Shown piece after piece: positions 8,616-40,894 of a DNA stretch of 64,000 nucleotides. The notes below the pieces were generated by a model. The model was not told the DNA's origin and did no database searches. It saw only the letters and a list, made by a program, of their open reading frames with translations. The DNA is taken from NCBI RefSeq assembly GCF_036507355.1, contig NZ_AP027877.1. One strand, given 5' to 3'. Numbering within the stretch: position 1 is the first letter of the stretch; each line of letters begins with the position of its first letter. The DNA comes from Escherichia coli. GTDB taxonomy: Bacteria > Pseudomonadota > Gammaproteobacteria > Enterobacterales > Enterobacteriaceae. The position numbers and the translations under genes are program-made.

Positions 8616-10376
8616 TTAACCGCGTAATTCGTGCGCCCGACGAAAACGACCTTCGTAATCGAACACTTTTTCACGCACTTGCCAGTACTGACCTTTCATG
8701 CGGGCAACGACAAAATCCGGGTGTCGCAATAAGGCTTGCTGGGCGAGGATATCGGCGGCGGTGATCCAGCGCAGAGGGATGCCCGGTGTGCGCGTATGCG
8801 GGCGGATAAAAAGCTGCTCGAAGGCAGTTCGCTGGGCGGGCGTTTGCAGACGGAAACGCTCACTCACATCCGCGCCGTCTTCATCGTAATAGGTGATTTT
8901 CAACCATTCGCCTTTCTCGTCGTGCCCATGCTGCAAAGACATGCCGCTACAGCGTAATACCAGCGCGTCTTTCAGTCGTAGCGCCGCTTTTAACATATCG
9001 TCAGGATCAACCAGTACCGTGTCACATTCGCGGCAGCGGCGAGCGGCAATATCATTTTCTGCGTTACATTGCGGGCAATTTTTAAAACGGAAACGGAAGT
9101 CACACTGTTCGCGATGACCGTCGTCATCTTCAAACCATCCCTGACAGCGGCGACCAAAGTGTTCAATCAATGTCCCGTCGGCGGTCGTTTTCCCCCAAAA
9201 GGTGTTGGCAAAACCGCAGGCAGGGCAGAAAACCTGTACCGGAACGTTGTCACTTTTGCCTTTCGGTGTACCAACTTCCGGCGCGTAGAGATCGTGAGGA
9301 TTACCCGCATAATCAAGAATTAAGCAATCAGTCTTGCCAGGAGCGAGACGCAGACCGCGCCCGACAATTTGTTGGTAAAGACTCACTGATTCGGTAGGGC
9401 GCAGAATGGCGATAAGATCGACGTGCGGGGCGTCAAATCCGGTGGTCAGTACCGCGACGTTGACCAGATAGCGAAAACGCTGGGCTTTAAAATCTTCAAT
9501 TAACACATCGCGCTCAGCGCCGGGGGTGTCGCCAGTAATCAGTGCAGCATCTTCGGCGGGTAGTAATCCCACAATCTCTTTTGCGTGTTCAACGGTGGCG
9601 GCGAAAATCATCACCCCTTTGCGCGTTGCAGCAAACTCCATAATCTGGCTGATGATGTGCGGGGTAATACGTTGTTGTTTTTTTAGCTCGCGGTTGAGAT
9701 CGGCTTCGCTGAATAGCCCGTTACTCTGTGCCTGCAAGCGGCTGAAATCGTATTGCACTACTGGCATATCCAGTCGTTCTGGCGGCGTCAGATAGCCGTG
9801 TTTAATCATATAACGCAGCGGCAGTTCATAAATGCAGTCACGGAAAAGGGCTTTCTCATCGCCGCGTACCATGCCGTGATAATGGAACTGGTAGATCCAG
9901 CCTTTGCCCAGTCGAAAAGGCGTGGCAGTCAGCCCCAGCAGGCGTAAGTGGGGATTCACTTTTGTCAGGTGAGTGAGGATTTGCTGATACTGGCTCTCTT
10001 CATCGTCACCAATACGGTGGCATTCATCGACAATCAACAGCGAAAATTCACCCTGAAAGGCATCAAGATTACGGGCGACCGACTGCACGCTGCCAAATAC
10101 CACTTTACCGTGGCTCTCTTTGCGCTTTAGCCCGGCGGCAAAAATATCGGCTTCCAGCCCCAGCGCCTGATACTTTGCATGGTTTTGCGCCACCAGTTCT
10201 TTAACGTGTGCCAGCACCAGCACGCGACCACGAGCCAGCCGCGCAAGTTCCGCTATCACCAGGCTTTTACCTGCACCGGTGGGCAGCACGATAACGGCAG
10301 GGGTTTTATGACGACGAAAATGGTTGAGCGTGGCATCCACGGCTTCTTGCTGATATGGGCGGAGTGTAAAAATCAT
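8616..10376 (-). CDS. radD: Superfamily-2 helicase-like DNA repair ATPase RadD (YejH)
   Basis: 586 aa. Walker A PTGAGKS, a DECH box, and a C-terminal Cys-rich zinc motif (CPACG...CPQC...CRECD). Confidence 0.93.
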
Positions 10377-31474: not shown

Positions 31475-31612
31475 AGTGTTCATGTTCTGTGCATCCCGTC
31501 ACAAATTCCTCGCTTTTGTAATTCTGGCATTTAATCGCATTTTGTGAGCCTGCTCAAATCTGCCCGCTTTGCCTCTCTGGCGGCAATTTACTTTACGTAA
31601 AACATGCATACT

Positions 31613-31647
31613 ATGAGCACATGTTTAAATATGAACACATGTTTAAA
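31613..31647. repeat. 18-bp-period tandem direct repeat upstream of psuK
   Basis: ATGAGCACATGTTTAAA-T-ATGAACACATGTTTAAA. The two 17-mers differ at 1 position. Confidence 0.8.
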
Positions 31648-31714
31648 CTGTCTTTGCAGTATCTATATTCTTGTGGATTGACAGGGTTGGTAATTTTTTA
31701 CCAGAGGACGTGCT

Positions 31715-32656
31715 ATGCGCGAAAAGGATTATGTCGTAATTATAGGCTCGGCGAATATTGATGTCGCCGGATATTCACATGAATCATTAAATTATGCGGA
31801 TTCAAATCCAGGTAAAATAAAATTTACGCCTGGTGGGGTAGGGCGCAATATTGCACAAAACCTGGCGTTGCTGGGTAATAAAGCCTGGCTACTGAGCGCC
31901 GTAGGCAGTGATTTTTATGGCCAATCGCTGCTAACGCAAACCAATCAATCTGGCGTTTATGTCGATAAATGCCTGATTGTGCCGGGAGAAAATACGTCGA
32001 GCTATTTATCATTACTCGATAATACCGGTGAAATGCTGGTTGCTATAAATGACATGAATATTAGCAACGCTATTACAGCTGAATATCTCGCACAGCACCG
32101 TGAATTTATTCAGAGGGCAAAGGTCATTGTCGCGGACTGTAATATCAGTGAAGAGGCACTGGCATGGATTCTGGATAATGCTGCCAACGTACCCGTATTT
32201 GTCGATCCGGTTTCAGCGTGGAAATGTGTCAAAGTGCGCGACCGTCTAAATCAGATCCACACTCTGAAGCCAAACCGCCTTGAAGCGGAAACACTGAGTG
32301 GGATTGCGCTGTCAGGGCGTGAAGATGTGGCAAAAGTTGCTGCCTGGTTCCATCAACATGGCCTGAACCGACTGGTATTGAGCATGGGCGGCGATGGCGT
32401 TTATTACAGCGATATCAGCGGTGAAAGTGGCTGGTCTGCGCCGATCAAAACCAATGTTATTAATGTTACCGGAGCGGGCGATGCCATGATGGCGGGACTT
32501 GCTTCGTGTTGGGTAGACGGAATGCCGTTTGCCGAATCTGTTCGTTTCGCACAGGGATGTTCGTCAATGGCGCTCTCCTGTGAATACACCAATAACCCCG
32601 ATTTATCGATTGCCAACGTTATATCGTTAGTGGAGAACGCAGAATGTCTGAATTAA
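31715..32656 (+). CDS. psuK: Pseudouridine kinase PsuK (YeiC), PfkB family
   Basis: 313 aa. GGVGRNIA and TGAGDA motifs. Confidence 0.93.
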   Translation: MREKDYVVIIGSANIDVAGYSHESLNYADSNPGKIKFTPGGVGRNIAQNLALLGNKAWLLSAVGSDFYGQSLLTQTNQSGVYVDKCLIVPGENTSSYLSLLDNTGEMLVAINDMNISNAITAEYLAQHREFIQRAKVIVADCNISEEALAWILDNAANVPVFVDPVSAWKCVKVRDRLNQIHTLKPNRLEAETLSGIALSGREDVAKVAAWFHQHGLNRLVLSMGGDGVYYSDISGESGWSAPIKTNVINVTGAGDAMMAGLASCWVDGMPFAESVRFAQGCSSMALSCEYTNNPDLSIANVISLVENAECLN

Positions 32657-33582
32657 AAATTTCCCCTGAATTATTACAAATTTCCCCGGAAGTGCAGGAC
32701 GCTTTAAAAAACAAAAAACCGGTTGTGGCGCTGGAATCGACCATTATTTCTCACGGGATGCCGTTCCCACAAAATGCCCAGACCGCAATTGAAGTTGAAG
32801 AAACTATTCGTAAACAGGGCGCAGTACCTGCCACTATCGCCATTATTGGTGGCGTGATGAAAGTGGGTTTAAGCAAAGATGAAATTGAATTACTGGGTCG
32901 TGAAGGGCATAACGTGACCAAAGTTAGTCGTCGCGATTTACCTTTTGTTGTTGCCGCCGGAAAAAATGGCGCAACCACTGTGGCTTCAACGATGATTATT
33001 GCGGCGCTTGCCGGAATTAAAGTATTTGCCACCGGGGGAATTGGTGGTGTTCATCGCGGGGCGGAACATACCTTCGATATTTCTGCCGATTTGCAAGAAC
33101 TGGCAAATACTAATGTCACCGTTGTTTGTGCCGGGGCGAAATCTATTCTCGATTTAGGATTAACCACTGAGTATTTAGAAACCTTCGGTGTGCCGTTAAT
33201 TGGCTATCAGACTAAAGCGCTGCCTGCGTTTTTCTGCCGCACCAGCCCGTTTGACGTCAGCATTCGTCTCGACAGCGCCAGCGAAATTGCCCGTGCAATG
33301 GCGGTGAAATGGCAAAGCGGGCTGAACGGTGGCCTCGTGGTAGCGAACCCGATCCCGGAACAGTTTGCTATGCCGGAACACACTATCAATGCGGCGATCG
33401 ATCAGGCGGTAGCTGAAGCTGAAGCGCAGGGTGTTATTGGTAAAGAAAGTACGCCATTCCTGCTGGCGCGCGTTGCTGAGCTGACCGGCGGTGACAGCCT
33501 GAAATTCAACATCCAGCTGGTGTTCAACAACGCCATTCTGGCGAGCGAAATTGCCAAAGAATATCAGCGTCTCGCGGGTTAA
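32644..33582 (+). CDS. psuG: Pseudouridine-5'-phosphate glycosidase PsuG (YeiN)
   Basis: 312 aa, IndA-like family. Overlaps psuK by 13 nt. Confidence 0.93.
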   Translation: MSELKISPELLQISPEVQDALKNKKPVVALESTIISHGMPFPQNAQTAIEVEETIRKQGAVPATIAIIGGVMKVGLSKDEIELLGREGHNVTKVSRRDLPFVVAAGKNGATTVASTMIIAALAGIKVFATGGIGGVHRGAEHTFDISADLQELANTNVTVVCAGAKSILDLGLTTEYLETFGVPLIGYQTKALPAFFCRTSPFDVSIRLDSASEIARAMAVKWQSGLNGGLVVANPIPEQFAMPEHTINAAIDQAVAEAEAQGVIGKESTPFLLARVAELTGGDSLKFNIQLVFNNAILASEIAKEYQRLAG

Positions 33583-33675
33583 TTTCTGACGGGCAGAAAG
33601 CCGTCGCCCGTACTGATCATACATACCGAAACCTGGCGCTGACGCCGGGTTTACTGGCATGAAGGGAAAATCATT

Positions 33676-34926
33676 ATGGATATAATGAGAAGTGTTGTGG
33701 GGATGGTGGTGTTACTGGCAATAGCATTTCTGTTGTCGGTAAATAAAAAGAGCATCAGTTTGCGCACGGTTGGAGCCGCACTGCTGCTGCAAATCGCTAT
33801 TGGTGGCATCATGCTCTATTTTCCGCCGGGAAAATGGGCAGTAGAACAGGCGGCATTAGGCGTTCATAAAGTGATGTCTTACAGTGATGCCGGTAGCGCC
33901 TTCATTTTTGGTTCGCTGGTTGGGCCGAAAATGGATGTCCTCTTTGACGGTGCGGGTTTTATCTTCGCCTTTCGCGTACTTCCGGCGATTATCTTCGTCA
34001 CTGCGCTCATTAGTCTGCTGTACTACATTGGCGTGATGGGGCTGCTGATTCGCATCCTTGGCAGCATTTTCCAGAAAGCCCTCAACATCAGCAAAATCGA
34101 ATCTTTTGTCGCAGTCACCACTATTTTCCTCGGGCAAAATGAGATCCCGGCGATCGTTAAACCGTTTATCGATCGCATGAATCGAAACGAGTTGTTTACC
34201 GCAATTTGTAGCGGGATGGCGTCCATTGCTGGTTCGATGATGATTGGTTATGCCGGAATGGGCGTACCAATTGACTACCTGTTAGCGGCATCGCTGATGG
34301 CGATCCCCGGCGGTATTTTGTTTGCACGAATTCTTAGTCCAGCAACCGAGCTTTCGCAGGTCACGTTTGAAAATCTGTCGTTCAGCGAAACGCCGCCAAA
34401 AAGCTTTATCGAAGCAGCGGCGAGCGGTGCGATGACCGGGCTGAAAATCGCCGCCGGTGTGGCGACGGTGGTCATGGCGTTTGTCGCAATTATTGCGCTG
34501 ATTAATGGCATTATTGGCGGAATTGGCGGCTGGTTTGGTTTTGCCAATGCCTCTCTGGAAAGTATTTTTGGCTATGTGCTGGCACCGCTGGCGTGGATCA
34601 TGGGTGTGGACTGGAGTGATGCCAACCTTGCGGGTAGCCTGATTGGGCAGAAACTGGCGATTAACGAATTCGTCGCTTACCTGAGTTTCTCCCCATACCT
34701 GCAAACGGGCGGCACGCTGGAAGTGAAAACCATTGCGATTATCTCCTTTGCGCTTTGTGGTTTTGCTAACTTTGGTTCTATCGGTGTTGTCGTTGGGGCA
34801 TTTTCGGCTATTTCGCCAAAACGTGCTCCGGAAATCGCCCAGCTTGGTTTACGGGCGCTGGCAGCAGCAACGCTTTCCAACCTGATGAGCGCGACCATTG
34901 CCGGGTTCTTTATTGGTTTAGCTTGA
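33676..34926 (+). CDS. psuT: NupC-family nucleoside (pseudouridine) transporter PsuT (YeiM)
   Basis: 416 aa, polytopic. A close paralogue of the nupX product in this window. Confidence 0.92.
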   Translation: MDIMRSVVGMVVLLAIAFLLSVNKKSISLRTVGAALLLQIAIGGIMLYFPPGKWAVEQAALGVHKVMSYSDAGSAFIFGSLVGPKMDVLFDGAGFIFAFRVLPAIIFVTALISLLYYIGVMGLLIRILGSIFQKALNISKIESFVAVTTIFLGQNEIPAIVKPFIDRMNRNELFTAICSGMASIAGSMMIGYAGMGVPIDYLLAASLMAIPGGILFARILSPATELSQVTFENLSFSETPPKSFIEAAASGAMTGLKIAAGVATVVMAFVAIIALINGIIGGIGGWFGFANASLESIFGYVLAPLAWIMGVDWSDANLAGSLIGQKLAINEFVAYLSFSPYLQTGGTLEVKTIAIISFALCGFANFGSIGVVVGAFSAISPKRAPEIAQLGLRALAAATLSNLMSATIAGFFIGLA

Positions 34927-34931
34927 GTTTC

Positions 34932-34973
34932 ATTGCCGGATGTACTCGCTTATTAAGCGTTGCATCCGGCAAT
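34932..34973. repeat. REP-like hairpin between convergent psuT and yeiL
   Basis: ATTGCCGGATG...CATCCGGCAAT inverted repeat. Confidence 0.6.
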
Positions 34974-34993
34974 CGCGCTATTGCAAATAATTT

Positions 34994-35653
34994 TTACTGC
35001 ATCATCCCGGAGAATTTATTCTCCGGGTCCATCTCCAGCGCCAGTCCTGACAACTGCTTTCTGTTTTTAATGAGATATCCTTTCTTGCTTTTAATTAATA
35101 AACCGTCGTGAATGAATTGCGCGAGAACATATAAAAGATGTCGATAAGAAACGCCTAAATACTCTGCCGCTTGCGTATGCTTTTCGTGATAAAGATCACC
35201 TTCTTGTGAGAGTAATATAAATGCTGCCAGGCGATTCACTAACGGAAATGATTGATTCTGAGTTAAAGAAACAATATTACGATAATTTTTATGACTTAAG
35301 GTGACGCAAAGTTTTCGTAAAAATAGGGTGTCGTTTAATAACAGCGGACGGTAATGTTTCATAGGGAGCGCAAGGCACCAACACTCTTCAATCGCCTGTA
35401 CTGCACGTGGTTCATGGTCTTTATCGATTAACTCAATCTCGCCAATAAAACAGGGGGCGGCAAAGAAATCGATCAGCGACACGCAACCATTAGCTAGCGT
35501 GGCGTAAAGCCTGGCGCGGCCTCGCGTCAGGTAAAACAGCCAGGACGGCTGTTGCCCTTCCTGCACAATGTAGTCACGCGCTAAAAAATGAAACAGCCGC
35601 GTATCGGCTGAAACATCCGTTAAAAAGCAATCCTTAAACGCGGATTCACTCAT
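34994..35653 (-). CDS. yeiL: CRP/FNR-family transcription regulator YeiL
   Basis: The 232-aa ORF (GTG start) is trimmed to the ATG start [13 protein letters not shown] (219 aa). cNMP-binding-like domain plus a C-terminal HTH. The longer start at 35692 cannot be excluded. Confidence 0.85.
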
Positions 35654-35821
35654 CAATTGCTGCTTAAGATCATTATTGTGGATTTCTTTCACGATGTTTA
35701 TCCGCTATGAGATTTCTCATATTTAGCATACGTACGCTGTTGTTAAGATTCAATCATCGGCCCGGTCGAATTTTCTTTGCTGTAGAAAAAATAACGCAAC
35801 TGGAAACAGAGGAAATAAACA

Positions 35822-36763
35822 ATGGAAAAGAGAAAAATTATTCTGGATTGTGATCCGGGTCATGATGATGCTATTGCAATGATGATGGCAGCGAAACATC
35901 CGGCAATAGATTTATTAGGCATCACTATTGTAGCGGGTAATCAGACGCTTGATAAAACATTAATTAATGGCCTGAATGTTTGCCAGAAACTGGAGATTAA
36001 TGTTCCGGTTTATGCGGGGATGCCGCAACCCATTATGCGTCAACAAATCGTTGCCGATAATATTCACGGTGAAACCGGACTGGATGGCCCGGTATTCGAG
36101 CCGCTGACCCGCCAGGCAGAAAGTACCCACGCGGTGAAATACATCATTGATACCCTGATGGCAAGCGATGGCGATATCACTCTGGTGCCGGTTGGTCCGT
36201 TGTCAAATATCGCGGTGGCAATGCGTATGCAATCCGCAATCCTGCCCAAAATCCGTGAAATTGTGCTAATGGGCGGCGCTTACGGTACAGGCAACTTCAC
36301 GCCATCTGCCGAGTTCAACATCTTTGCTGACCCGGAAGCCGCACGCGTGGTGTTCACCTCCGGCGTTCCATTAGTGATGATGGGCCTCGATCTTACCAAC
36401 CAGACCGTTTGCACCCCGGACGTAATTGTTCGGATGGAAAGGGCAGGCGGCCCTGCCGGAGAGCTATTCAGCGACATCATGAACTTCACTCTCAAAACGC
36501 AGTTCGAAAACTACGGCCTGGCTGGCGGCCCGGTGCACGACGCCACCTGCATCGGTTATCTGATTAACCCTGATGGCATTAAAACCCAGGAGATGTACGT
36601 CGAAGTGGACGTCAACAGTGGCCCTTGCTATGGGCGTACCGTCTGCGACGAGCTGGGCGTTCTTGGCAAGCCCGCTAATACCAAAGTCGGCATCACTATT
36701 GATACCGACTGGTTCTGGGGCTTAGTCGAAGAGTGCGTGCGCGGCTACATCAAAACCCATTAA
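35822..36763 (+). CDS. rihB: Pyrimidine-specific ribonucleoside hydrolase RihB (YeiK)
   Basis: 313 aa, with the N-terminal DCDPGHDDA nucleoside-hydrolase fingerprint. Confidence 0.95.
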
Positions 36764-36973
36764 GTGTTGATAACAAGCCGGGTCAGTATCGCAAAATGCA
36801 GGCCCGGCTATTTCTGAGGGGCAGAAAGCCGTCGCCCAATATGACATGAAGAGATAATAACTATGGATGTCATGAGAAGTGTTCTGGGAATGGTGGTATT
36901 GCTGACGATTGCGTTTTTGGTGATGCTGCCAACTTACTGATTTAGTGTATGATGGTGTTTTTGAGGTGCTCCA

Positions 36974-37249
36974 GTGGCTTCTGTTTCTATCAGCTGTCCC
37001 TCCTGTTCAGCTACTGACGGGGTGGTGCGTAACGGCAAAAGCACCGCCGGACATCAGCGCTATCTCTGCTCTCACTGCCGTAAAACATGGCAACTGCAGT
37101 TCACTTACACCGCTTCTCAACCCGGTACGCACCAGAAAATCATTGATATGGCCATGAATGGCGTTGGATGCCGGGCAACAGCCCGCATTATGGGCGTTGG
37201 CCTCAACACGATTTTACGTCACTTAAAAAACTCAGGCCGCAGTCGGTAA
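36974..37249 (+). CDS. insA: IS1 InsA
   Basis: 91-aa ORF identical to the InsA of copy A. Confidence 0.95.
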
Positions 37250-37671
37250 CCTCGCGCATACAGCCGGGCAGTGACGTCATCGTCTGCGCGGAAATGGACG
37301 AACAGTGGGGCTATGTCGGGGCTAAATCGCGCCAGCGCTGGCTGTTTTACGCGTATGACAGGCTCCGGAAGACGGTTGTTGCGCACGTATTCGGTGAACG
37401 CACGATGGCGACGCTGGGGCGTCTTATGAGCCTGCTGTCACCCTTTGACGTGGTGATATGGATGACGGATGGCTGGCCGCTGTATGAATCCCGCCTGAAG
37501 GGAAAGCTGCACGTAATCAGCAAGCGATATACGCAGCGAATTGAGCGGCATAACCTGAATCTGAGGCAGCACCTGGCACGGCTGGGACGGAAGTCGCTGT
37601 CGTTCTCAAAATCGGTGGAGCTGCATGACAAAGTCATCGGGCATTATCTGAACATAAAACACTATCAATAA
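37168..37671 (+). CDS. insB: IS1 InsB (expressed as the InsAB' frameshift fusion)
   Basis: 167-aa ORF identical to the InsB of copy A. A6C slippery site at 37225-37231. Confidence 0.95.
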
Positions 37672-38904
37672 GTTGGAGTCATTACCTGCGTTTTTACTGT
37701 CAGTAAACAAGAAGAAGATCAGCCTGCGTACCGTTGGCGCGGCGTTAGTGTTACAGGTTGTGATTGGCGGGATTATGCTTTGGTTACCGCCAGGGCGTTG
37801 GGTCGCTGAAAAAGTCGCTTTTGGCGTGCATAAAGTGATGGCGTACAGCGATGCAGGTAGCGCATTTATCTTCGGTTCGCTGGTCGGGCCGAAAATGGAC
37901 ACGCTGTTTGATGGCGCAGGATTTATCTTTGGTTTCAGGGTGTTACCGGCAATTATCTTCGTCACCGCGCTGGTGAGTATTCTCTATTACATCGGTGTGA
38001 TGGGGATCTTAATTCGCATTCTCGGCGGTATATTCCAGAAAGCATTAAATATCAGCAAGATCGAGTCATTCGTCGCGGTCACTACCATTTTCCTCGGGCA
38101 AAACGAAATTCCGGCGATCGTCAAACCCTTTATCGATCGTCTGAATCGCAATGAATTATTTACAGCGATTTGTAGTGGCATGGCCTCGATTGCTGGTTCG
38201 ACAATGATTGGTTACGCCGCACTGGGCGTGCCTGTGGAATATTTGCTGGCGGCATCGTTAATGGCGATCCCAGGCGGGATCTTGTTTGCCCGCCTGCTAA
38301 GCCCGGCTATGGAATCTTCGCAGGTTTCTTTTAATAACCTCTCTTTCACCGAAACACCGCCAAAAAGCATTATTGAAGCTGCCGCGACAGAGGCAATGAC
38401 CGGGCTGAAAATCGCCGCAGGTGTGGCGACAGTAGTGATGGCATTTGTCGCCATCATTGCGTTAATTAACGGTATTATCGGCGGCGTTGGCGGCTGGTTT
38501 GGTTTTGAACATGCCTCGCTGGAATCCATTTTAGGTTACCTGCTGGCCCCACTGGCGTGGGTGATGGGTGTTGACTGGAGTGATGCGAATCTTGCCGGGA
38601 GTTTGATTGGTCAGAAACTGGCAATAAATGAATTTGTCGCTTATCTCAATTTCTCACCCTATCTGCAAACGGCTGACAAGCTGGATGCTAAAACCGTGGC
38701 GATTATTTCCTTCGCGTTGTGCGGTTTCGCTAACTTTGGTTCTATCGGGGTGGTGGTGGGGGCGTTTTCTGCGGTTGCGCCACACCGTGCGCCGGAAATC
38801 GCCCAACTTGGTTTACGCGCGCTGGCGGCGGCGACACTTTCTAATCTGATGAGTGCCACCATTGCCGGGTTCTTTATTGGTTTAGCGTAGTGTGCGATTT
38901 ATGA

Positions 38905-38938
38905 GCCGGATAATATGCGGTCAAGCGTCGAATCCGGC
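38905..38938. repeat. REP-like hairpin between convergent nupX and yeiI
   Basis: GCCGGAT...ATCCGGC inverted repeat. Its position is analogous to the hairpin after psuT. Confidence 0.5.
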
Positions 38939-38945
38939 AACATTG

Positions 38946-40034
38946 TTACACCATTGGCATTAATGAAAGCGCGTTATCGGCAGACAAGGTAGGGTTATTT
39001 AAGCTGCCGCTGGCGCGTGAAATTGCCGCGCAGGCCATCGCAAAACGGGCGCTGTCACGGAAATTGTTTCCTTCCAGAAAGCTATATACCAGGCCCGCCA
39101 TAAAACCATCGTCAGCACCAAAACTGTCTACTGTCGTATGCGCTGGTGCGGTCAGCAAAAATTGTTCTCCATCCTTTTCGCTGCAATAAACTGACTCATC
39201 GGGCAAATAAACAAACAGTTGCTGAACACCTTGCTGATGCAACGCATTCACTGCAGCATTACGGTCAGCATCGCTGGTGATCGCCTGTCCCCATAAAATT
39301 TCCAGCTCCGGTAAAGTGGGTTTCAGGGTGTGAATATGCGCCAGCCAGTGTTTGATTTTGCCCGCTTTGAATTCTGAAACGGTATCGACAAACACCGGGA
39401 TCTCATCAGCGAGGGTAAAGACCCATTCCAGCGCCTCGGCTGTCAGGTTGCAATCAGCCAGTACCACGCCCGCATGACGAAGTAAATCGCGCGACCCGTT
39501 CAGTAGTTGCGGTGTCAACTGTTCCAGCAGATGGGTATCGTTAATCGCCAGCACGGTTTGATCGTCTCGATTGGCAATTGCCAGATACGTCGATGTGCTT
39601 TGACCATGCAAACGAACGCAGCCGGAGACATTCACGCCGGCACGGCGCGTTTCTTCCAGGAGCATTTCGCCATAAAAGTCATCGCCAATCACTGAAAGCA
39701 AATGGACGTCGCGGCCTAACAGCGCCAGATTGTGGGCGATATTGCGTCCAACGCCGCCTGCCGAGCAATGAATTGTACCGGGATGAGAAGCCGATTGCGG
39801 GTAACGGATATCCGCCATCCCGCGAATATCCATATTGATTGTCCCCACCACTACGCAGTATTCCTGCTCGGTGAGAATGTAACCTTTGCCTTTAATCCGG
39901 CCTTTGCGCATTAAATCCATAATATGCGCCGCAACGCGCGAACGGCTGATTTGCAGCATGTCCGCAATTTCGTTCTGCTGAATCAGCGGGTTACGCCGTA
40001 AAATTGCAAGGATCTCCTTTTCCCGGTTATTCAT
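38946..40034 (-). CDS. yeiI: HTH domain fused to a PfkB-family sugar/nucleoside kinase, YeiI (function unknown)
   Basis: 362 aa. The N-terminal ~55 aa form a winged-HTH-like region (REKEILAILRRNPLIQQNEIADMLQISRSRVAAHI). The rest aligns by eye to PsuK (GGVGRNIAHNLALLG, VLAIND, ADCN, PVFVDTVS, IHTLKP, GADDGFMAG). Confidence 0.9.
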   Translation of the reverse strand: MNNREKEILAILRRNPLIQQNEIADMLQISRSRVAAHIMDLMRKGRIKGKGYILTEQEYCVVVGTINMDIRGMADIRYPQSASHPGTIHCSAGGVGRNIAHNLALLGRDVHLLSVIGDDFYGEMLLEETRRAGVNVSGCVRLHGQSTSTYLAIANRDDQTVLAINDTHLLEQLTPQLLNGSRDLLRHAGVVLADCNLTAEALEWVFTLADEIPVFVDTVSEFKAGKIKHWLAHIHTLKPTLPELEILWGQAITSDADRNAAVNALHQQGVQQLFVYLPDESVYCSEKDGEQFLLTAPAHTTVDSFGADDGFMAGLVYSFLEGNNFRDSARFAMACAAISRASGSLNNPTLSADNALSLMPMV

Positions 40035-40036
40035 CT

Positions 40037-40894
40037 TCAGGCTACCGCTTTTTCAGTTTGTTGCGCTTTCAGCCAGGCGATCTCTTCTGCCCAGATATCC
40101 GGGTTGATGGTTTCGAGGATCAGCGGAATGCCGTCGAAACGGTCGTCCTGCATGATCCAGCGGAACGCATCATGACCGATATTGCCTTCACCGAGGCTAT
40201 GATGGCGGTCAACGCGGCTGCCAAAGGTGCTTTTCGCATCGTTAAGGTGCATCCCGCGCAGATACTTAAAGCCGACAATACGGGCAAAATCAGCGAACGT
40301 TTTCTCGCATTCGGCTGGAGTACGCAAATCATACCCGGCAGCGAAAGCATGGCAGGTATCAATGCAGACGCCGACACGGGATTTATCTTCCACGCCGTCG
40401 ATAATCGCCGCGAGATGTTCGAATTTAAACCCTAAGTTACTGCCCTGACCGGCGGTGTTTTCAATCACCGCGGTCACACCTTGAGTTTTATCCAGCGCAA
40501 TGTTGATGGATTCGGCAATACGCGCAAGGCAATCCTCTTCTGAAATCTGCATCAGATGGCTGCCAGGGTGGAAGTTGAGCAAAGAAAGCCCCAGCTGTTC
40601 GCAACGCTGCATTTCATCTATAAAGGCATCGCGCGATTTTTCCAGAGCTTCAGTGACCGGATGTCCGAGGTTAATCAGATAGCTGTCGTGGGGAAGAATT
40701 TGCGCCGATGTGTAGTGATATTTTTCACAGGCGGCTTTGAATTCATCGATGGTTTGCGTCGTGAGCGGTGCGGCACGCCACTGACGTTGGTTTTTGGTGA
40801 ACAAGGCAAACGCGGTTGCGTCGATTTCGGCGGCGCGAATTGCGGCATTTGCCAGACCGCCAGCAGCACTAACGTGCGCTCCAATGTATTTCAT
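40037..40894 (-). CDS. nfo: Endonuclease IV
   Basis: 285 aa, [21 protein letters not shown]... Recognised as the K-12 sequence. Confidence 0.95.

Follow-up and report, generated by a model that had tools for sequence, protein, structure and literature searches.

Two sets of nucleoside-salvage genes lie side by side in a 64,000-nt stretch of the Escherichia coli contig NZ_AP027877.1 (hereafter the window, meaning this whole stretch), and one of their genes, yeiI, encodes a protein that joins a helix-turn-helix (HTH) to a PfkB-type sugar-kinase domain. Gene identification relied on a listing of open reading frames (ORFs), family-model scans and comparison with E. coli genomes. The window covers the E. 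coli yei region in the orientation opposite to that of K-12: fruK-fruA lie upstream, followed by psuK, psuG, psuT, yeiL, rihB, nupX (interrupted by the insertion sequence IS1) and yeiI, and then by nfo, yeiH, and yeiE. All of these genes except nupX::IS1 are intact, differing from K-12 by 1-5 residues, and their content, order and coordinates agree with the original prediction, which had been made from the DNA letters alone. That prediction explained the region by a single tandem duplication of a kinase-hydrolase-transporter module, with yeiI as the kinase of the second copy. Our comparisons suggest that the region consists, instead, of two separate cassettes for nucleosides. Cassette A, for pseudouridine catabolism, would comprise psuK-psuG-psuT and the convergent yeiI; cassette B, for uptake and hydrolysis of uridine and cytidine, would comprise yeiL and the divergent rihB-nupX, which in the E. 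coli lineage lie between psuT and yeiI, and which are disabled in the window by the IS1 in nupX. Two independent cassettes, with YeiI acting as a pseudouridine-sensing repressor of psuKGT that is possibly no longer a kinase, is the reading that we consider probable.

The psuK gene (31715-32656, plus strand) encodes an HTH-less pseudouridine kinase of 313 aa (NCBIfam NF007355, 716 bits against a cut-off of 540), which differs from the K-12 protein at one residue and has the same architecture as PDB 7vkp. It is followed on the same strand by psuG (32644-33582), for a pseudouridine-5′-phosphate glycosidase of 312 aa (Pfam PF04227, E = 7e-132; K-12 annotation), and by psuT (33676-34926), for a CNT/NupC-family transporter of 416 aa. 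PsuT and NupX each contain three Pfam CNT domains (N, Gate, C) and score 514 and 484 bits against the TIGR00804 cut-off of 442, so both are CNT/NupC members. On the reverse strand, yeiL (34994-35692) encodes a CRP/FNR-family regulator of 232 aa from a GTG start; the K-12 gene model begins 39 nt further in, and the window protein is 99% identical to the 232-aa E. coli YeiL cluster. Its score of 415 bits against NF007707 (cut-off 180) and its PF00027 (cyclic-nucleotide-binding) and PF13545 (Crp-type HTH) domains place it in the YeiL subfamily. The rihB gene (35822-36763, plus strand) encodes a pyrimidine ribonucleoside hydrolase of 313 aa (NF007417, 722 bits against 459).

The yeiI gene (38946-40034, reverse strand) encodes a protein of 362 aa, with a winged HTH (wHTH) at residues 1-48 (PF13412 HTH_24, E = 1e-10) and a PfkB-like domain at residues 58-348 (PF00294, 230 bits against a cut-off of 25.8). 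YeiI matches the "sugar kinase" model NF007416 (812 bits against 561) and falls below the PsuK equivalog NF007355 (254 bits against 540). Its HTH is 72% identical to that of the Serratia HTH-PsuK fusion, versus 48% for the kinase domain, and HTH identities across Proteobacteria are 65-72%. Compared with K-12, yeiI shows 15 synonymous-type and 5 amino-acid differences; within its clade the protein's rate of evolution only slightly exceeds that of PsuK, and its tree follows the species topology. By these comparisons yeiI is a maintained gene under purifying selection. Directly upstream on the same strand lies nfo (40037-40894, endonuclease IV); 3 bp separate its stop from the yeiI start in the window, and 2-5 bp do so in the other Enterobacteriaceae loci (L001-L011 in our numbering), so that the two genes are probably co-transcribed in this family. 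A genomic SELEX (gSELEX, in vitro selection of genomic DNA) peak of RNA polymerase has been listed between nfo and yeiI (PMC3946193).

The two transporters and the two kinases are both paralogue pairs. With IS1 removed in silico, PsuT and NupX are identical at 363 of 416 residues (87.3%) without gaps, confirming the collinearity that had been seen by eye, and five alignment columns (PsuT positions 56, 68, 112, 188, and 195) separate all NupX-type copies from all enterobacterial PsuT. The two genes share 78% identity at the DNA level and 52% at third codon positions, with a Jukes-Cantor (JC) distance of 0.87 at four-fold sites. A recent gene conversion between psuT and nupX was considered and rejected: third-position identity is 36-60% throughout the gene, alongside that four-fold distance. 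PsuK and the YeiI kinase domain are identical at 120 of 307 residues (39%, E = 2e-76), and every block that the original prediction had quoted as shared by them is present in the alignment. PsuG and RihB have no similarity (E > 5), as had also been noticed.

The substrates of cassette B, described earlier as unassigned, are partly known. RihB has been characterised as a hydrolase of uridine and cytidine (PMC10526354). Uptake of these two nucleosides by NupX is weak; PsuT showed no uptake of uridine, cytidine, or xanthosine, and in a published phylogeny the two transporters cluster with each other and separately from NupC (PMC11241209). For YeiI the earlier statement holds: it is a "putative sugar kinase" in K-12 RefSeq and of "function unknown" in PMC9061257.

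We built neighbour-joining trees with bootstrap from a few hundred alignment columns. Bootstraps of 97-100% support the monophyly of both the YeiI clade and the HTH-less PsuK clade; their species topologies mirror each other, with Affinibrenneria basal in both (bootstraps 97 and 99), and both clades are nested among kinase-HTH fusions from Enterobacterales, Pasteurellales, and Orbales. The YeiI stem (0.27-0.34) has roughly double the length of the PsuK stem. Thus the trees agree with the earlier view that PsuK and YeiI are paralogues of an old split. The transporters tell of a younger event: all rihB-adjacent copies, including that of Hafnia, form one weakly supported clade within Enterobacteriaceae PsuT, after the Affinibrenneria PsuT has branched off, and the NupX split inside the Enterobacteriaceae PsuT clade has moderate support (63%). 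This position also upholds the description of nupX as a psuT duplicate. Measured against the same orthologue the two pairs have opposite relative divergence, since PsuT is 87% identical to NupX and 81% to Affinibrenneria PsuT, whereas PsuK is about 40% identical to YeiI and 60% to Affinibrenneria PsuK; the two pairs therefore arose in separate events. On these trees the psuK/yeiI split predates the divergence of Affinibrenneria and Enterobacteriaceae, and nupX is a younger duplicate of psuT.

Gene co-occurrence separates the same genes. At least 79 loci were collected by a genome scan with an alignment of wHTH-PfkB proteins, and were annotated by tblastn with the window proteins. In Enterobacteriaceae, the loci listed always have a pair of genes, with an HTH-less psuK inside the operon and a yeiI convergent to psuT. 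The cassette of psuKGT with convergent yeiI is found in at least four unrelated neighbourhoods: beside nfo/fruA in Enterobacteriaceae, in Affinibrenneria, in a Salmonella island (with transposases and relBE), and in Brenneria. Eleven loci have yeiI and psuKGT without rihB-nupX (L002-L005, L007, L009, L080, L081, L083, L090, and L091); for example, the order nfo-yeiI> <psuT-psuG-psuK-fruA without yeiL-rihB-nupX is seen in Enterobacter asburiae, three Citrobacter species, Phytobacter ATCC 27989, Leclercia EMC7, Pluralibacter, and Klebsiella. Conversely, two loci have rihB-nupX without yeiI. Hafnia alvei (L086) contains yeiL> <rihB-nupX alone, with neither yeiI nor psu genes, and S. enterica subsp. 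arizonae (L088) contains nfo, nupX (split)-rihB, yeiL, and fruA, with yeiI and psuKGT gone from either side of the block. In a Leclercia metagenome-assembled genome (MAG; L010) the yeiL-rihB-nupX block lies between psuK and fruA, i.e., on the other side of psuKGT. Thus, profiling the co-occurrence of rihB-nupX-yeiI, which had been suggested as a check, shows yeiI going with psuKGT instead among the loci sampled. In the Salmonella island (L081, 14826-17577) the yeiI-psuTGK cassette adjoins genes of pyrimidine-nucleoside phosphorylase type and of the IF-2B family, which includes ribose-1,5-bisphosphate and 5-methylthioribose-1-phosphate (MTR-1-P) isomerases; together these genes may form a larger island for nucleoside catabolism.

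Cassette B appears to have its own regulation and its own history. In the divergent spacer between yeiL and rihB we found an FNR-like 5-4-5 palindrome, ATGAG-ATTT-CTCAT (35707-35720), which is a candidate YeiL box. Its 14-bp core is identical in eight of nine aligned Enterobacterales sequences (the window, L001, L006, L008, L011, L086, L087, and L088); the first arm is GTGAG in the Leclercia MAG, and the Enterococcus version reads GTGAG-AATT-CTCAT. The palindrome is centred at about -42 from a -10-like TAAGAT (35744-35749), and YeiL is annotated as an activator in K-12, so that the site is a probable YeiL box of the rihB promoter. This position is consistent with YeiL driving rihB-nupX, in which case the second set of genes has its own regulator and no need of YeiI. 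In Enterococcus malodoratus (L085, 3924-6672) yeiL is divergent from a gene for a RihB-like hydrolase, followed by genes for a 288-aa PfkB kinase and a Bmp/ABC nucleoside transporter; identity to the window proteins is 57-59% for YeiL and 76% for the hydrolase. Because identity between phyla is so high, a recent horizontal exchange of the yeiL-rihB pair is suggested. The pair thus points to acquisition, rather than to the replacement of a glycosidase by a hydrolase inside a duplicated operon that had been proposed before.

The wHTH-PfkB architecture is widespread in the protein search. Among the matches listed, nearly all of 68 loci (L012-L079) have the HTH-PfkB gene adjacent to psuG, on its upstream side and in the same orientation, with psuT often following; the exceptions are a second Xenorhabdus paralogue and truncated contigs. 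This arrangement is found in Yersiniaceae (Serratia, Yersinia), Morganellaceae (Morganella, Photorhabdus, Xenorhabdus), Orbaceae (Gilliamella), and Pasteurellaceae, and also in Chromobacteriaceae, Shewanella, Vibrionaceae, Aeromonas, Ferrimonas, and Oscillospiraceae/Clostridia. Since the fusion is the usual form outside Enterobacteriaceae, it is presumably the ancestral form of the pseudouridine kinase gene. The second Xenorhabdus paralogue (L031, L033, and L035) is 355 aa long, is not beside psuG and lacks a recognisable tandem operator of the kind described below. The psu locus on one contig labelled Pseudomonas lundensis (L017) groups as the sister of Serratia quinivorans in the trees of both kinase and transporter, so that a wrong label or contamination is probable.

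We aligned the regions upstream of psuK from 15 taxa and found, in this order, a CRP-like site, a TTTACT(TT) block, a -10-like block, and two tandem palindromes. In the window the predicted CRP-like site TGTGA-N6-TCAAA is at 31543-31558 (plus strand), about -71 from the inferred start, and the TGTGA...TCA block is conserved in the Enterobacteriaceae alignment. The putative psuK promoter (31587-31614, plus strand) has the -35 element TTTACT at 31587-31592, a 16-bp spacer, and the -10 element TACTAT at 31609-31614; the "TTTACTTT" block and the -10-like block are conserved in Enterobacteriaceae, and appear as TTTACT...TATAAA in Serratia, Yersinia, and Photorhabdus. The candidate tandem operator (31615-31644) consists of the 12-bp palindromes GAGCACATGTTT (31615-31626) and GAACACATGTTT (31633-31644), with the consensus AAACA-NN-TGTTT and a start-to-start spacing of 18 bp. 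An alternative promoter, TTTAAA-16-TATATT (31642-31669), was not preferred and is not conserved in other genera; under either promoter model the operator overlaps core promoter elements. The same pair, spaced at 18-19 bp, precedes HTH-psuK by 30-75 bp in Serratia, Yersinia, Photorhabdus, Gilliamella, Pasteurellaceae, and Chromobacteriaceae. In some Yersinia and Serratia gene models of 372 aa (L015, L017, and L018 at about 9968-10000; P0065 and P0073) the protein begins "MFKNKQVS...", an extension that results from translating the operator DNA ATGTTTAAAAACAAACAAGTGTCC; the true start is probably a downstream ATG.

We then scanned 1.64 Mb from 84 loci (including the window) for such pairs, counting as upstream those within 260 bp of the first psu gene, which is 1.3% of the sequence. 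At a strict threshold (each site at least 8/10, sum at least 17) all 35 distinct pairs were upstream of the first psu gene, and at a looser one (each site at least 7/10, sum at least 16) this was the case for 55 of 77. The pair was also found in genera that were not used to define the motif (Shewanella, Grimontia, Enterovibrio, and Ferrimonas), and the yeiI-bearing Klebsiella and Brenneria used as controls have it with scores of 19/20 and 17/20. Two HTH-less psuKGT loci without a nearby yeiI (an Aeromonas jandaei island and a Pasteurellaceae MAG) have no operator pair. Nor did the scan find a pair at rihB, nupX, yeiL, nfo, or yeiI; at the strict threshold none lies upstream of yeiI where this gene has an intergenic region of its own (L080, L081, and L091). 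Thus, in the scan and its controls, the tandem palindromes co-occur with the wHTH, whether it is fused to the kinase or encoded separately. Because the fusion protein is the sole regulator available in the fusion operons, and in E. coli only YeiI has that HTH, we link YeiI to the psuK operator.

The kinase domain of YeiI combines a conserved ligand site with altered phosphoryl-transfer motifs. We mapped the contacts reported for PsuK (PMC9061257; PsuK numbering) on an alignment of 52 sequences, comprising YeiI from 15 species and 37 PsuK or HTH-PsuK proteins. Conserved in YeiI are N14 and D16 (ribose), S30, Y97, N112, N143, and K170 (base), and K185 and D256 (catalysis); the D256 equivalent is a Glu in Affinibrenneria YeiI. 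The base-binding triad that is the hallmark of the PUKI (pseudouridine kinase) group, Ser/Thr30, Asn143, and Lys170 (PMC9061257), corresponds to Ser83, Asn196, and Lys223 of YeiI, and is invariant in 52 of 52 sequences. The N-terminal GG motif is also kept (AGGVGRN in 15 of 15 YeiI). On the other hand, the Asn of the NXXE motif is T, S, or A in all 15 YeiI (TLPE in the window) and N in the 37 others; the ATP-phosphate loop LSxGxxG, canonical in nearly all others, has lost both Gly in 15 of 15 (VYLPDES in the window); and GAGD has become GADD or GADE in 15 of 15 (GADD in the window, with Asp for the third-position Gly), versus GxGD in 37 of 37. NXXE binds Mg, and GXGD is a motif of the PfkB family (PMC5931981). 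The pattern fits a ligand-binding domain that no longer needs catalysis; it does not by itself prove inactivity.

These observations suggest the following history. The ancestor would have been a wHTH-PfkB fusion encoded upstream of psuG, probably repressing its own operon through the two tandem AAACA-N2-TGTTT palindromes. In the lineage leading to Enterobacteriaceae and some Pectobacteriaceae, the gene would have been duplicated and its functions divided: the PsuK copy would have lost the HTH and kept the enzymatic role, and the YeiI copy would have kept the HTH and all pseudouridine contacts, while its phosphoryl-transfer motifs changed and catalysis was lost or reduced. YeiI dimers on the two palindromes, which abut the -10 element and cover the start (or lie on the -35 element of the alternative promoter), would repress psuKGT, and CRP bound at about -71 would activate the psuK promoter. 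For PsuK, closure of the dimer has been documented to be specific for pseudouridine and dependent on Ser30 (PMC9061257); in YeiI, pseudouridine acting through Ser83, the equivalent of Ser30, would likewise close the PfkB dimer, shifting the N-terminal HTHs and releasing the DNA. The ancestral fusion would have used the same switch and, in addition, phosphorylated its own inducer. Later, nupX would have arisen from psuT and joined an acquired yeiL-rihB pair, under the control of YeiL through its own box. We infer DNA binding and repression by YeiI, pseudouridine as the inducer, and the loss of kinase activity from the sequence patterns described above. In its full form, with YeiI as a catalytically silent PfkB pseudokinase that serves as pseudouridine receptor and psuKGT repressor ("PsuR"), born of a split between kinase and repressor, we hold the proposal tentatively and give it somewhat less than an even chance.

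Several observations weigh against this proposal. YeiI keeps the catalytic Asp (D309) and Lys238 and may therefore have some kinase activity left, or an altered one. The PROSITE PfkB signature tolerates D at the changed Gly, perhaps because its seed set included YeiI. The YeiI stem is long for distance trees, which leaves its exact attachment uncertain, and the NupX clade has a bootstrap of only 40-55%. The queries that retrieved the loci were YeiI-like, YeiL, or PsuK sequences, which biases the sample; yeiI genes without psuKGT may have been missed. The hexamers TTTACT and TACTAT score 8/12, and a consensus scanner listed the alternative promoter instead. The operator consensus was derived in part from loci that the scan then covered, and about nine of the 84 loci, mostly Aeromonas, have no recognisable pair at the loosest threshold. 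In the window the core AACANNTGTT with at most one mismatch has 34 matches versus 29.6 expected, which is not significant; the information lies in the tandem pair and its position, the 10-mer core by itself showing no over-representation.

Among the alternatives, the one we find least improbable is that YeiI is still bifunctional, a second active kinase for pseudouridine or an analogue (e.g., a methylated one) that also regulates psuKGT. The evidence from HTH and operator fits this equally well, as do the purifying selection on the protein and the retention of the catalytic Asp, of Lys238, and of all ribose and base contacts, and a Met114-to-Thr change beside the base could shift specificity. 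We nevertheless think it unlikely, since all 15 YeiI have substitutions at the NXXE Asn, at both loop Gly and at the third position of GXGD, which are invariant in the 37 active-type sequences, two of these changes put acidic residues at the phosphate-binding site, and a canonical PsuK is always encoded alongside in the loci sampled, so that a second kinase is not needed. N3-methylated ligands are further disfavoured by the conservation of Asn143, which binds N3 and O4 of the base (PMC9061257).

It is also conceivable that another factor binds the palindromes and that YeiI is an unrelated sugar kinase or regulator that is merely adjacent. CRP-family and other nucleoside regulators act in this region, and RefSeq names the protein a putative sugar kinase. 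Against this, the operator accompanies the wHTH, fused or separate, over three bacterial classes, and the two psuKGT loci that lack such an HTH also lack the operator. Beside these operons the only conserved regulator gene is the one with the wHTH, most operator-bearing genomes lack YeiL, and YeiI has the pseudouridine-specific Ser/Asn/Lys triad. We judge this explanation improbable. Still less credit, in our view, goes to the idea of one ancient tandem duplication in which the psuG copy was replaced by rihB, and YeiI acts as a kinase together with RihB and NupX on another nucleoside. The window's gene order, which sets yeiI beside nupX, and the true paralogy of both PsuT/NupX and PsuK/YeiI speak for it, but paralogy does not extend to all genes (PsuG and RihB are unrelated, and yeiL has no counterpart in the first module), the paralogue pairs differ in relative age, and joint inheritance breaks down in both directions: yeiI persists in the 11 loci without rihB-nupX, and rihB-nupX-yeiL persists without yeiI in Hafnia and S. 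arizonae. The block also lies on the other side of psuKGT in the Leclercia MAG, and yeiL-rihB occurs with a different transporter in Enterococcus. Besides, the products of the hydrolase (free base and ribose) are no substrate for a kinase with the base contacts of a pseudouridine kinase, and the phosphoryl-transfer motifs of YeiI are altered. The single duplication with yeiI as the kinase of the second module is thus contradicted both by the ages of the pairs and by their co-occurrence, and the adjacency of yeiI to rihB-nupX, tempting as it is, was the wrong basis for inferring a common function.

The proposed repressor can be compared with several known systems. E. coli PsuK/YeiC (EcPUKI; PDB 7vkp, 7vtd, and further entries) belongs to the same PfkB family and tree clade as YeiI (39% identity over 305 residues, E = 2e-66 to the PDB chain) and has the same ribose and base contacts, including Ser30, Asn143, and Lys170; YeiI differs from it by the N-terminal winged helix, by the altered NXXE, ATP-loop, and GXGD motifs, and by a gene that is outside the operon and convergent to psuT. 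The HTH-PsuK fusions (in Serratia, Yersinia, Photorhabdus, Shewanella, Chromobacterium, and Oscillospiraceae, among others) share with YeiI the two-domain architecture and the tandem operator, but they have canonical NXXE, GxxG, and GAGD motifs and no separate PsuK, whereas YeiI has changed motifs and coexists with an HTH-less PsuK; the fusions are presumably true kinases and regulators. In the ROK repressors Mlc and NagC, and in BirA, NadR, and PutA, an enzyme fold with a DNA-binding domain senses a ligand for its own pathway; their folds (ROK/ASKHA and so on) differ from the PfkB/ribokinase fold of YeiI. The plant proteins FLN1 and FLN2 are members of the PfkB family tied to the plastid transcription machinery. 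They have no detectable kinase activity (PMC5405513) and so set a precedent for PfkB pseudoenzymes, although they are eukaryotic and unrelated in origin, lack a DNA-binding domain, and have no known nucleoside ligand, unlike the proposed YeiI. In the literature searched we found no function for YeiI, no "PsuR", no pseudouridine regulon, and no PfkB-type transcription factor, and a PDB sequence search returned no solved HTH-PfkB protein, its matches being PsuK and other kinases only.

If the proposal is correct, YeiI would be the first characterised bacterial transcription factor with a PfkB fold, and a clean natural case of subfunctionalisation, in which one copy lost a domain and the motifs of the other decayed. 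It would supply the regulator and promoter logic of pseudouridine catabolism, and would give one of the remaining unassigned E. coli K-12 proteins a specific candidate role, with a defined 30-bp DNA target and a ligand. The widespread wHTH-PsuK fusions are likewise suggested to be bifunctional enzyme-regulators. The pathway is being engineered for the production of pseudouridine for mRNA therapeutics (PMC12500856, PMC10552469), and deletion or tuning of yeiI could matter for such production strains.

The loss of the nupX transporter to IS1, already recognised in the original prediction, is clear in the window. The element (36919-37686, plus strand) is exactly 768 bp long, with terminal inverted repeats, insA (36974-37249), and insB′ (37168-37671), and is flanked by a 9-bp direct repeat, TGCGTTTTT, at 36910-36918 and 37687-37695. 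The 5′ fragment of nupX (36863-36918, plus strand) covers codons 1 to about 18 and ends in one copy of this target-site duplication, the gene being broken after codon 18 or 19; the 3′ part (37687-38890, plus strand) opens with the other copy. Removing IS1 and one copy of the repeat in silico restores an intact ORF of 416 aa, whose product differs from K-12 NupX at four residues. The nupX::IS1 junction was not found among the 5,426 complete E. coli genomes searched. A second IS1, 100% identical and in the opposite orientation, lies at 1489-2256, so that the 64 kb contain two copies. Together with the absence of the junction from those genomes, this suggests that the DNA probably comes from an IS1-rich, Shigella-like lineage outside the collection searched. 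Loss of nupX has occurred repeatedly: Escherichia ruysiae (L006, 11086-11147) lacks nupX, and in S. enterica subsp. arizonae (L088, 3460-4711 and 5750-6000) nupX is split in two ORFs and the yeiL-rihB spacer has an insertion of about 120 bp.

Hairpins of the REP (repetitive extragenic palindromic) type follow both transporter genes, as had been noticed: one at 34932-34973, between the convergent psuT and yeiL (-28.2 kcal/mol, z = -5.65), and one at 38905-38938, between the convergent nupX and yeiI (-17.1 kcal/mol, z = -2.1). Both share the REP stem GCCGGAT...ATCCGGC, of which the window contains five such elements versus 0 expected, with canonical REPs, judged by the REP consensus, among them. 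In addition, the rihB-nupX spacer (36764-36862) contains a GC-rich hairpin, GCCGGG...CCCGGC, which could be an internal attenuator between the two genes.

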